Below, in pieces: positions 6,072 to 10,026 of a stretch of DNA of 35,494 nt. Source of the DNA: a virus. Taxonomy: Duplodnaviria > Heunggongvirae > Uroviricota > Caudoviricetes. A model generated the notes under the pieces. The model made no database searches, was not told where the DNA came from, and saw nothing but the letters and a program-made list of their open reading frames with translations. The translations under genes were made by a program, and so were the position numbers. The stretch lies in the IMG/VR virus record IMGVR_UViG_2724679140_000015; one strand, 5' to 3'. The number at the start of each line of letters is the position of its first letter. Within the stretch, counting starts at the first letter, position 1.

Positions 6072-6952
6072 ACACTCCTCGTCAGTATTCTGGCGGCCAT
6101 TGCACTTAATCCCGGAGACATGCGGTTGAATGCGGTGCCGGCAGCGTTAAGCTGCCCGGAAACGGTATCCAGAGCACCTGCAATATTTCTTTTGTCCACA
6201 CCACTCAGCGCCGACTGCGCCTGCTGTACACACATGACTGCTTCGCTGGCTGTTCTGGCCAGACTGATGGCATCGGGCATGGATTCAGAGAGAGCATTAA
6301 ATGCCGGAATACTTTTCCCCAGAGATCCGGATATATTACCCAGTCCGCTCATCAGTCCCGGCACACGGGTCAGCGCGACAACGGGGTTACCTTTCATTTT
6401 CTGCGCCACCCGAACGGCACTGATGGTAGTCTGGAGTACAGACTGCGCCTGTTTCGCATAGTTGACACCGTTACGGACGAACTGAGCCACCCCGGAAGGC
6501 GATGGAACAGCACCAGATACGGCCCCGGCTCCGGGAACCTGCCTGCGTATTGCCGGCGGTTGCAGAGGATTTTTGGGGTCACCGGTGTATTCCCGGAGAG
6601 ACACGGTGGCACTGACAGCCAGCACGTTACCGGTGCTGTCTGTCTGCTCGCTGGTTGCGGTCACATCGGTAATCACGAACCAGCCGCGATAGTCACCGTT
6701 GCCGAAAACCAGCGCCAGTGCCTGATGGGCCTTCATGGCTGTTCGCAGTCTCGCCAGCTCCACGTCGGGCACACAATAATGCTGATGGAAGATCAGACTT
6801 ATCTGGATTTCGTCCAGCCTGTCGCCGACGAACTGCAGGCCGGGTTTACCCTCGATGCGGGCATGCTCCGCATAATCGACGCCGAACGTGGCCTCGAAGC
6901 CGTCCCAGTAGGTAATCAGTTCAAACTCAATATCACCCAGTACGGCAAACAT
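6068..6952 (-). CDS. DNA circularization protein N-like (tail protein)
   Basis: 294-aa ORF immediately downstream of the tape measure gene, as in Mu. Confidence 0.45.
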   Translation of the reverse strand: MFAVLGDIEFELITYWDGFEATFGVDYAEHARIEGKPGLQFVGDRLDEIQISLIFHQHYCVPDVELARLRTAMKAHQALALVFGNGDYRGWFVITDVTATSEQTDSTGNVLAVSATVSLREYTGDPKNPLQPPAIRRQVPGAGAVSGAVPSPSGVAQFVRNGVNYAKQAQSVLQTTISAVRVAQKMKGNPVVALTRVPGLMSGLGNISGSLGKSIPAFNALSESMPDAISLARTASEAVMCVQQAQSALSGVDKRNIAGALDTVSGQLNAAGTAFNRMSPGLSAMAARILTRSV

Positions 6953-9510: not shown

Positions 9511-9768
9511 TTACTGATTGTCGCCGAACTCGCTTTTGATTTGCTCTTCAGCCTGCTCCAGCCACATCTCCAGATCGTCAGTATCGAGGGCATCAATCTC
9601 CCCCGGCTGAAACCTGAACCACCTTGCCAGCAGCCCCTGCGCCTGCGTCAGCGTTTTTGTCGCTCTTGTCCAGCCCAGTGATTTTCTGAAATCGTTTCTG
9701 CAGCTCCATATAGTCGGCAAGATCCATGTTATCGAGGTCCTCCGGGAGGATACCAGTGCTACGGGCAA
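9511..9768 (-). CDS. candidate frameshift extension of tail assembly chaperone (GT-like product)
   Basis: 85-aa ORF overlapping the 3' part of 9593-9928 in the +1 frame, ending just before the tape measure start; classical position for a programmed frameshift. Confidence 0.35.
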   Translation of the reverse strand: MPVALVSSRRTSITWILPTIWSCRNDFRKSLGWTRATKTLTQAQGLLARWFRFQPGEIDALDTDDLEMWLEQAEEQIKSEFGDNQ

Positions 9769-9928
9769 TCAGCGGTTCGTCCCAGTCTGCCGGGTCTTTG
9801 TTGATTTTGCGCACCTGCTTCAGGTCTTTTACCGTCAGGCGTTTCAGTTCAATCTGCTCAATTCTGGTGCCGGCAGCAGTGGTGAAAGGATAAGACAGCG
9901 TAAAAGTATCTGGCTGGGTCTGTGACAT
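9593..9928 (-). CDS. tail assembly chaperone (G-like, upstream frame)
   Basis: 111-aa ORF between tube and tape measure genes; overlapped by a second ORF in another frame. Confidence 0.5.
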   Translation of the reverse strand: MSQTQPDTFTLSYPFTTAAGTRIEQIELKRLTVKDLKQVRKINKDPADWDEPLIARSTGILPEDLDNMDLADYMELQKRFQKITGLDKSDKNADAGAGAAGKVVQVSAGGD

Positions 9929-10026
9929 GATCGTGCTCCTGTGTAAGTTCAGGGCAGTATGTCTGGCGGTGGACGTGACGGATATTAAAGGAGATTAAGA
10001 AGAAAGGGGCCGGAGCCCCTGTGATA

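Follow-up and report, generated by a model that had tools for sequence, protein, structure and literature searches.

A probable +1 ribosomal frameshift at a conserved UUU_C site in the gene encoding the tail assembly chaperone of a BcepMu-like prophage

Introduction

Frameshifting in the tail assembly chaperone genes of phages is a textbook form of programmed recoding, and the characterized examples are nearly all shifts into the −1 frame. In phage lambda, gpG and gpGT are two products with a common N-terminus, the fusion being the minority product of a −1 shift at G_GGA_AAG, and both are required for tail assembly; for the chaperone pair of tailed phages, −1, −2 and +1 shifts are all in use (PMC5009743). 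Phage P2 makes gpE and gpE+E' by a −1 shift on the classical heptamer T_TTT_TTG, and the transposable myophage Mu passes from gp41 into the extension Mu_56 by a verified −2 shift on CGG GGG CGA. In bacteria, UUU_Ynn sequences are especially prone to +1 slippage, for which no stop codon is needed (PMC5009743). The present report concerns the equivalent locus in a virus of the class Caudoviricetes, IMG/VR record IMGVR_UViG_2724679140_000015, which was analyzed as a stretch of 35,494 nucleotides (nt) that is referred to below as the window. An initial annotation of the window had pointed to two overlapping open reading frames (ORFs) upstream of the tape measure gene as a tail assembly chaperone pair with a programmed frameshift. 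Comparison with homologous loci suggests, with a probability of roughly three in four, that a conserved +1 shift at the UUU_C of Phe80 in the first of these ORFs makes a gpE+E'-like fusion protein.

Tail assembly chaperone and the open +1 frame

The first ORF (ORF1, 9928–9593, on the minus strand, as are all features described here) encodes a 111-amino-acid (aa) short tail assembly chaperone of the gpE-like type. Its product matches the Pfam family Phage_TAC_7 (PF10109; 'E, or 41 or 14') over residues 8–82 with an E-value of 1.4e-22 and 80 bits against a cut-off of 25, and also matches phrog_166 'tail protein'. The PF10109 threshold is passed by the BcepMu, Pseudomonas and Pasteurella orthologues as well. 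ORF1 is positioned between the tail tube gene (10832–10311) and the tape measure gene (9417–6952), the location expected of a Phage_TAC_7 chaperone. The conserved domain is limited to residues 1 to about 84, and the tail of the protein past Phe80 is variable in length and evolves almost neutrally. With the PF10109 match and the gene order sheath, tube, chaperone and tape measure, the assignment of a chaperone pair upstream of the tape measure gene is borne out, and ORF1 is almost certainly the gpE-type tail assembly chaperone of a BcepMu-like prophage.

The open stretch of the second frame covers 86 codons, between a stop at 9771–9769 and position 9511. It begins 160 nt past the ORF1 start and, as 160 mod 3 = 1, stands in the +1 (equivalently −2) register relative to ORF1, the rarer of the possible relations, as the initial annotation had noted. 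The overlap is real, with both ORFs on the minus strand where they had been placed. For comparison, 160 homologous loci were collected from IMG/VR, GTDB species representatives and phage or genome records, with hosts that include Escherichia, Klebsiella, Salmonella, Pectobacterium, Brenneria, Lonsdalea, Pantoea, Mixta, Burkholderia, Pseudomonas, Ralstonia, Pandoraea, Undibacterium and Verminephrobacter. The same +1 arrangement of the E' segment is found in all 157 loci that could be scored, and locus L116 conforms to it as well. The −1 frame is used by more distantly related members of the Pfam family, namely P2, Pasteurella phage AFS-2018a, Vibrio Valp1 and a Volucribacter prophage.

The part of the +1 frame that would be translated after the shift is the gpE'-like extension (9687–9511), which encodes 58 aa followed by a stop. 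Residues 35–85 of the open +1 frame match phrog_8286, a group of small unannotated proteins, with an E-value of 4.8e-32. When an alignment of 18 diverse +1 segments (A3) was compared with an alignment of P2-type E' proteins, hhalign returned a probability of 97.6% (E=3e-12). The Pfam profile Phage_P2_GpE (PF06528) aligns with the +1 segment over profile positions 4–36 of 37 and scores 17.4 bits, under the cut-off of 23, and an NCBIfam search of the E' segment gave no match. The +1 frames of the window and BcepMu gp42 and the −1 frame of P2 (E') have, by eye, a motif in common that consists of a hydrophobic stretch followed by Q-P-[GS]-E-I..L..D...W. Residues W6, L20, P28, E30, L34, W42 and I50 are invariant in the 18-segment alignment. 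Judged by the hhalign result and the end-to-end alignment with PF06528, the +1 frame encodes a divergent homologue of P2 gpE'.

Location of the shift site

The position at which translation changes frame was bounded by comparing selection in the two frames, expressed as N/(N+S), the non-synonymous share of pairwise codon differences, with codons numbered from Glu63 as codon 0. Among 49 unique ungapped enterobacterial sequences of 77–100% identity, N/(N+S) in the ORF1 body up to codon +13 is 0.31 in frame 0 and 0.89 in the +1 frame. The values are 0.77 and 0.51 for codons +19 to +28, and 0.88 and 0.27 for codons +29 to +48. Purifying selection changes from frame 0 to the +1 frame at the Phe80 codon in this set, and the Burkholderia, Ralstonia/Pandoraea, Pseudomonas and Pectobacterium/Brenneria/Lonsdalea clades each show this change of frame independently. 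With its +1 frame under purifying selection, the overlap is no chance feature.

In 25 loci, which belong to the Ralstonia and Pseudomonas clades, stops close the +1 frame as far as codon +13, and in 10 loci as far as codon +7. The upstream part of the open +1 frame in the window (9768–9688), which the initial annotation had included in its second ORF, has an N/(N+S) of 0.89 in that frame and is probably not translated in it. On the downstream side, a limit is set by a Trp at codon +20 to +23 that is invariant in the +1 product. The frame-0 stop is found at codon +28 (L062 and L063), at +41 or +42 (49 loci, the commonest position), at +44, +46, +47 or +49 (the last being the window type), or at +52 or +53, and mutations that create the earlier frame-0 stops are synonymous in the +1 frame (TTC AGG to TTT AGA in the KP12 type, ACC to ACT in L062). 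Because stops reach codon +13 of the +1 frame in 25 loci, the +1 Trp is invariant and frame 0 can end at +28, a shift site common to these loci must, on this comparison, lie between codons +14 and about +21.

The window reads CAG AAA CGA TTT CAG AAA ATC ACT across this interval, and the predicted +1 shift site is the UUU_C at 9691–9688, in which the Phe80 codon TTT occupies 9691–9689 and C9688 would be the base skipped. In 160 of 160 loci, Phe80 has the codon TTT with a C after it. The sole apparent TTC at this position is in L142, where the frame has been moved by an upstream 1-nt deletion and the DNA still reads CGATTTCAA. The zero-frame codon after Phe80 specifies Gln, His, Leu or Arg, yet its first base is C throughout, and the +1 residue after Phe may be Arg, Ser, Lys, Trp, Gly or Ala. 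Since the next residue varies in both frames, the C after TTT is conserved at the nucleotide level. As a control, Phe15, likewise conserved in the ORF1 product, is TTC in 98 loci and TTT in 10 (n=108). In the 40 loci with a GC content of at least 58%, approximately 77% of background Phe codons are TTC and 23% are TTT, and Phe80 is TTT in all 40. The TTT at Phe80 is constant within each of five clades while neighbouring codons vary. In terms of codon–anticodon pairing, the UUU_C of Phe80 stands alone in the interval in having a tRNA that can re-pair in the +1 frame (UUU to UUC, the cognate of the GAA anticodon), and re-pairing in the −2 direction at UUU_C is impossible by the sequences of every clade.

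The site lies within the pentacodon CAG AAA CGA TTT CAG (9700–9686, codons +14 to +18), which shows no synonymous variation in the 49 unique enterobacterial sequences and has a per-codon diversity of 0.024 vs 0.375 in the ORF1 body. The pentacodon may provide sequence context for the shift, and the lack of variation in the flanking codons of enterics suggests a role for context. Only TTT C is common to all clades, nothing else of the pentacodon being shared outside Enterobacterales. Within the late genes of this phage, C is the rarest base after an in-frame TTT (12 of 97), which is consistent with a general avoidance of TTT_C.

Proposed mechanism and products

Ordinary translation of ORF1 would yield the abundant short gpE-like chaperone, and a minority of ribosomes would shift +1 at Phe80. 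With UUU (9691–9689) in the P site, the peptidyl-tRNA-Phe (anticodon GAA) would re-pair on the overlapping UUC so that C9688 is skipped, and decoding would resume at AGA AAA UCA and run to the stop at 9513–9511. By an alternative route, the incoming Phe-tRNA could read UUC out of frame, which would lead to the same product. The predicted fusion would be composed of ORF1 residues 1–80 followed by RKSLGWTRATKTLTQAQGLLARWFRFQPGEIDALDTDDLEMWLEQAEEQIKSEFGDNQ, giving 138 aa with the junction ...ELQKRF-RKSLGWTRAT.... On the model of lambda G/GT and P2 E/E+E', the N-terminal domain common to both products would cover the tape measure protein and the rare E' extension would bring in the tube protein, setting the stoichiometry for tail assembly. 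We infer ribosomal +1 slippage from the conservation pattern, and the roles of the two products from analogy with these two phages. A solved structure of a relative was sought by sequence, and none was found. Transcriptional slippage was considered and rejected, as the site has no more than three T and the homopolymers of greater length are the A- and G-runs that are dismissed below.

The minimal cassette of influenza A PA-X is UCC_UUU_CGU (PMC5009743). The shift site is UCC_UUU_CGC in the Burkholderia clade and GUG_UUU_CGG in the Pseudomonas clade. Upstream complementarity of the Shine-Dalgarno (SD) type is strong in the Pseudomonas clade, with GAGGUG directly 5' of the UUU, and in the Ralstonia clade, and is modest in enterics.

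Several observations weigh against a programmed shift at Phe80. No universal stimulator was found across the clades: the SD-like element is absent from the Burkholderia clade, downstream RNA structure is not significant (z=−1.08), and the zero-frame A-site codons CAG, CUG, CGC and CGG are not rare in the hosts. In-frame TTT_C also occurs at 11 other positions in the late genes, so the bare TTT_C cannot be very efficient, and the efficiency of the shift at UUU_C could be only about 1%. Part of the TTT conservation could in principle be due to constraint in two frames if the shift took place one to three codons upstream, where there is no re-pairing site. The Pfam match of the E' segment is below the curated threshold, and the fusion protein is a prediction from sequence comparison.

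Alternative explanations

Recoding within the same interval (+14 to +22) could occur by another event, for instance slippage on a neighbouring codon that is particular to one clade, a −2 shift or a short hop. Comparison of the loci delimits the interval and does not reveal the junction residue, and in enterics the flanking CAG AAA CGA ... CAG is as invariant as the Phe codon. However, no other codon of the interval re-pairs in +1 or −2 in any clade and the universal element is TTT C only, which makes such an event unlikely.

It is less probable still that the +1 ORF is a separate small gene with a start codon of its own, reached through internal initiation or coupling, and that no fusion is made. 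PHROGs contains standalone annotations of about 54 aa (phrog_8286), BcepMu gp42 and phiE255 gp16 are annotated as separate genes, and an ATG is present at codon +31 in many of the enteric relatives. However, no start codon position is conserved, and the window has ACG where relatives have ATG. There is no +1 ATG, GTG or TTG before the invariant Trp in 50 of 112 unique loci, and ten loci are without any +1 start before the hydrophobic core. The homologous P2 product has also been proven to be a fusion. The lack of a conserved +1 start codon and the P2 fusion favour recoding over a separate gene, in agreement with the initial annotation.

That annotation had listed two homopolymers among the candidate slip regions, the A-run and the G-run at the end of ORF1, and had recommended comparison with homologous chaperone pairs. 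The comparison upholds a frameshift into the +1/−2 frame and moves the event away from the proposed sites, to Phe80 approximately 30 codons upstream. Both runs are downstream of the permitted interval (+14 to about +21), and a shift at either is very improbable.

The G-run with the ORF1 stop (GGGGGAGATTGA, 9604–9593; G-run at codons +46 to +47) would be the site of a Mu-like −2 (or +1) slippage on GCC GGG GGA GAU UGA, giving ...VSAGG-EIDAL.... Five Gs permit re-pairing of tRNA-Gly, a stop codon is nearby, Mu sets a precedent with its verified −2 shift, and a few database proteins are fused exactly at the G-run (P0003–5, P0007–9). Against this, frame 0 ends seven codons before the G-run in 48 loci (the 'GEVV*' type), and the run is absent from the Salmonella, Pseudomonas and Burkholderia clades and, at this position, from the Ralstonia clade. 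A fusion made here would be without the invariant E' Trp and without LLARWFRF, the conserved core of E'. The G-run itself encodes Pro-Gly-Glu of the E' motif. In the subtype of the window, represented by 19 sequences whose ORF1 extends across the G-run, the counts for codons +42 to +48 are S=0/N=206 in frame 0 against S=206/N=0 in the +1 frame; the stretch that slippage at the G-run needs in frame 0 is constrained in the +1 frame only. The database fusions are scattered at homopolymers, are unannotated and are typical of indel errors. Another G-tract, the GGG_G at codon +35 (GCA GGG GCU), was also considered and rejected, as L001-type relatives have GGG CCT and the invariant Trp is upstream.

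Slippage of tRNA-Lys by +1 on the A-run (GACAAAAACGC, 9661–9651, codons +27 to +29; GAC AAA AAC at 9661–9653) would give ...SDK-TLTQAQG..., and AAA_A permits perfect re-pairing. One database protein (P0001) is fused at this point. The run is not conserved, however: the PhiKM type has AGCAACCAGGGCGC where the window has the A-run, PhiKM-type relatives carrying AGCAACCAGGGC instead, and the other clades have no such run. The Trp that is invariant in the +1 product is encoded upstream of the A-run, and L062 and L063 have their frame-0 stop at the A-run codon.

A search with the predicted fusion found database proteins of 138 aa that cover its full length, with junctions scattered between the A-run, the G-run and elsewhere. 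Most of these proteins (P0001–P0010) are from single assemblies, and no slippage annotation is attached to any of them. The scattering of the junctions at homopolymers, the single assemblies and the lack of a slippage annotation suggest that they are homopolymer indels arising in sequencing or assembly, at the A5 and G5 runs that had been picked in the initial annotation.

That there is no recoding at all, the +1 ORF being a relic or conserved for a nucleic-acid-level reason, is the least probable explanation: no annotation pipeline reports a product, but the +1 substitutions are protein-like with a synonymous excess in five clades, residues are invariant, and the segment is homologous to the essential P2 E'.

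Genomic context

The window is, by its gene content, a BcepMu-like (Bcepmuvirus) transposable prophage with a P2-type tail. The assignment is based on the P2-type tail genes, on an rve-type transposase and an AAA+ protein encoded elsewhere in the window (Pfam), and on the nearest phage records, which are assigned to Bcepmuvirus (PhiKM). The chaperone region is found at 80–99% identity in 640 of 5426 complete E. coli genomes.

The order of genes on the minus strand is sheath, tube, 93-aa ORF, ORF1, tape measure and gpU-like. The tail sheath gene (12259–10832) matches PF04984 and PF17482, and is followed by a tube gene of the P2 FII type upstream of ORF1 (PF04985, E=4e-53). By analogy, the tail tube protein is the presumed partner of the E' extension. 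The tape measure gene directly downstream encodes 821 aa (PF10145, phrog_28, phrog_5690), and its product is the presumed client of the ORF1 chaperone. A P2 gpU-like protein gene is located at 6952–6068.

A 93-aa ORF of unassigned function (10308–10027) is inserted between the tube gene and ORF1. It matches phrog_1239 (unknown function), the Pfam match to DUF7739 is sub-threshold (24.6 bits vs 27), and a PADLOC search of the ORF gave no match. A GC hairpin with a T-rich tail, resembling a terminator, comes after the ORF at 10020–10005, and BcepMu and the Salmonella relative are without the ORF. Given this absence and the hairpin, the ORF looks like a moron-type gene inserted into the tail operon.

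The E' stop is separated from the GTG start of the tape measure gene by a 93-nt non-coding spacer (9510–9418). The spacer contains an 8-bp inverted repeat (AACAGCCG ... CGGCTGTT) with a T8 run on its 3' side, just before an AGAGGA Shine-Dalgarno sequence, and these could form an RNA stability or attenuation element. A third-frame ORF of 57 aa (9596–9423), which overlaps the E' segment and the spacer, was rejected as non-coding with an N/(N+S) of 0.93–0.96.

A few loci depart from the common arrangement or are of uncertain origin. In L142 (Apirhabdus apintestini CP138906), the 1-nt deletion is six codons upstream of Phe80 and joins the frames, which would give a constitutive E+E'-like protein and no short form. 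A single-base deletion just 5' of the G-run joins the frames in L085 (IMG/VR UViG 2734481909_000003), and both loci are either decaying prophages or assembly errors. The enterobacterial-type BcepMu-like tail locus L134 (83% protein identity) is on a low-coverage 8.2-kb contig of 'Arthrobacter sp. GMC3' (NZ_PJIO01000028) and is probably contamination of an actinobacterial assembly. L165 (Volucribacter psittacicida) and L010 (Pasteurella phage AFS-2018a) have E' in the −1 frame, with a lambda-like G_GGA_AAG heptamer directly before the stop and no frameshift annotated.

Annotation status and significance

Chaperone frameshifting is well known and +1 cases are in the literature; the UUU_C variant in this group appears to be new and carries no annotation so far. 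A search confined to the open-access literature found, for this group, no record or paper that describes a +1 shift at UUU_C, so that an earlier description is possible. The fusion is missing from every record examined, namely the RefSeq/PGAP E. coli prophages, BcepMu, phiE255, PhiKM and KP12. PGAP gives only the short 'phage tail assembly protein' in E. coli prophages, and no joined coding sequence is present in the PhiKM, KP12, phiE255 or newer Burkholderia phage records. In the paper on KS10, a frameshift site was not found in this related transposable phage (PMC2628397).

On balance, the whole lineage (Bcepmuvirus and relatives in beta- and gammaproteobacteria) would seem to make an essential chaperone fusion by a +1 shift on a bare UUU_C without a universal stimulator, a generalization held with somewhat less assurance than the shift itself. 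If this is true, the phages use the same minimal cassette as influenza PA-X, and three recoding solutions have evolved at one domain boundary: −1 heptamers in the same Pfam family, −2 in Mu and +1 here. According to Schwartz and Curran in 1997, +1 slippage at UUU_Y reportedly depends on tRNA-Phe and its A37 modification; the E:E+E' ratio could then follow host physiology through this modification. If confirmed, the loci would amount to a large collection of +1 sites of the simplest type, replicated by nature, in which one could study what turns a weak +1 site into a 'programmed' one and how one protein family moves between −1, +1 and −2 shifts. For annotation, the practical value lies in a fusion that is missing from the records and in BcepMu reference frames that are probably mispaired. 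Frameshift predictors focused near the zero-frame stop would miss a site approximately 30 codons upstream of it.

Comparison with known frameshifting systems

The locus of BcepMu (AY539836) is orthologous to that of the window, with gp41 the PF10109 chaperone and gp42 the E' frame in +1 relative to gp41. The GenBank record (L004, 24602–25363) proposes a −1 slip from gp42 into gp43 as a lambda G/T-like pair and leaves gp41 out of account. gp43 has no counterpart in the window, where E' is followed by the non-coding spacer. From the comparative data, gp41 probably pairs with gp42 through a +1 shift at UCC_UUU_CGC, and the GenBank annotation probably pairs the wrong frames.

The same tetranucleotide and the re-pairing of tRNA-Phe from UUU to UUC are found at the bacterial UUU_Ynn sites of argI and, as proposed, YopN-TyeA, and in PA-X (PMC5009743), the last of which the Burkholderia-clade site resembles in sequence. 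The YopN site is unconfirmed by mutagenesis (PMC3789692). These cases differ in kind, being translational errors, a type III secretion regulator and an animal virus, and none is a phage tail chaperone.

The likeness to lambda gpG/gpGT is a functional analogy only, as lambda is a siphovirus with a −1 site and no sequence similarity was found. Mu is closer in being a transposable myophage with its chaperone extension in the +1/−2 frame. Mu gp41 has its own family, PF23746, and only borders PF10109 (24.7 bits vs the cut-off of 25). Its −2 shift is on a G-rich site, whereas the BcepMu-like G-run is neither conserved nor in accord with the selection pattern.

A further likeness is with gpE/gpE+E' of P2. 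P2 E matches PF10109, its E' is the homologue detected by hhalign, and the pair occupies the same place between the tube gene FII and the tape measure gene T. The shift of P2 and the predicted shift of the window are both located at the C-terminal edge of the tail assembly chaperone domain, within about 4 aligned residues and on a Phe codon in each, and the fusions are similar in length (142 aa in P2 and a predicted 138 aa in the window). The two part at the recoding step, where P2 uses a heptamer for its −1 shift and the window has E' in the +1 frame, no heptamer and a predicted +1 shift on UUU_C. The locus would function like P2 E/E+E' but is outside the −1 class.

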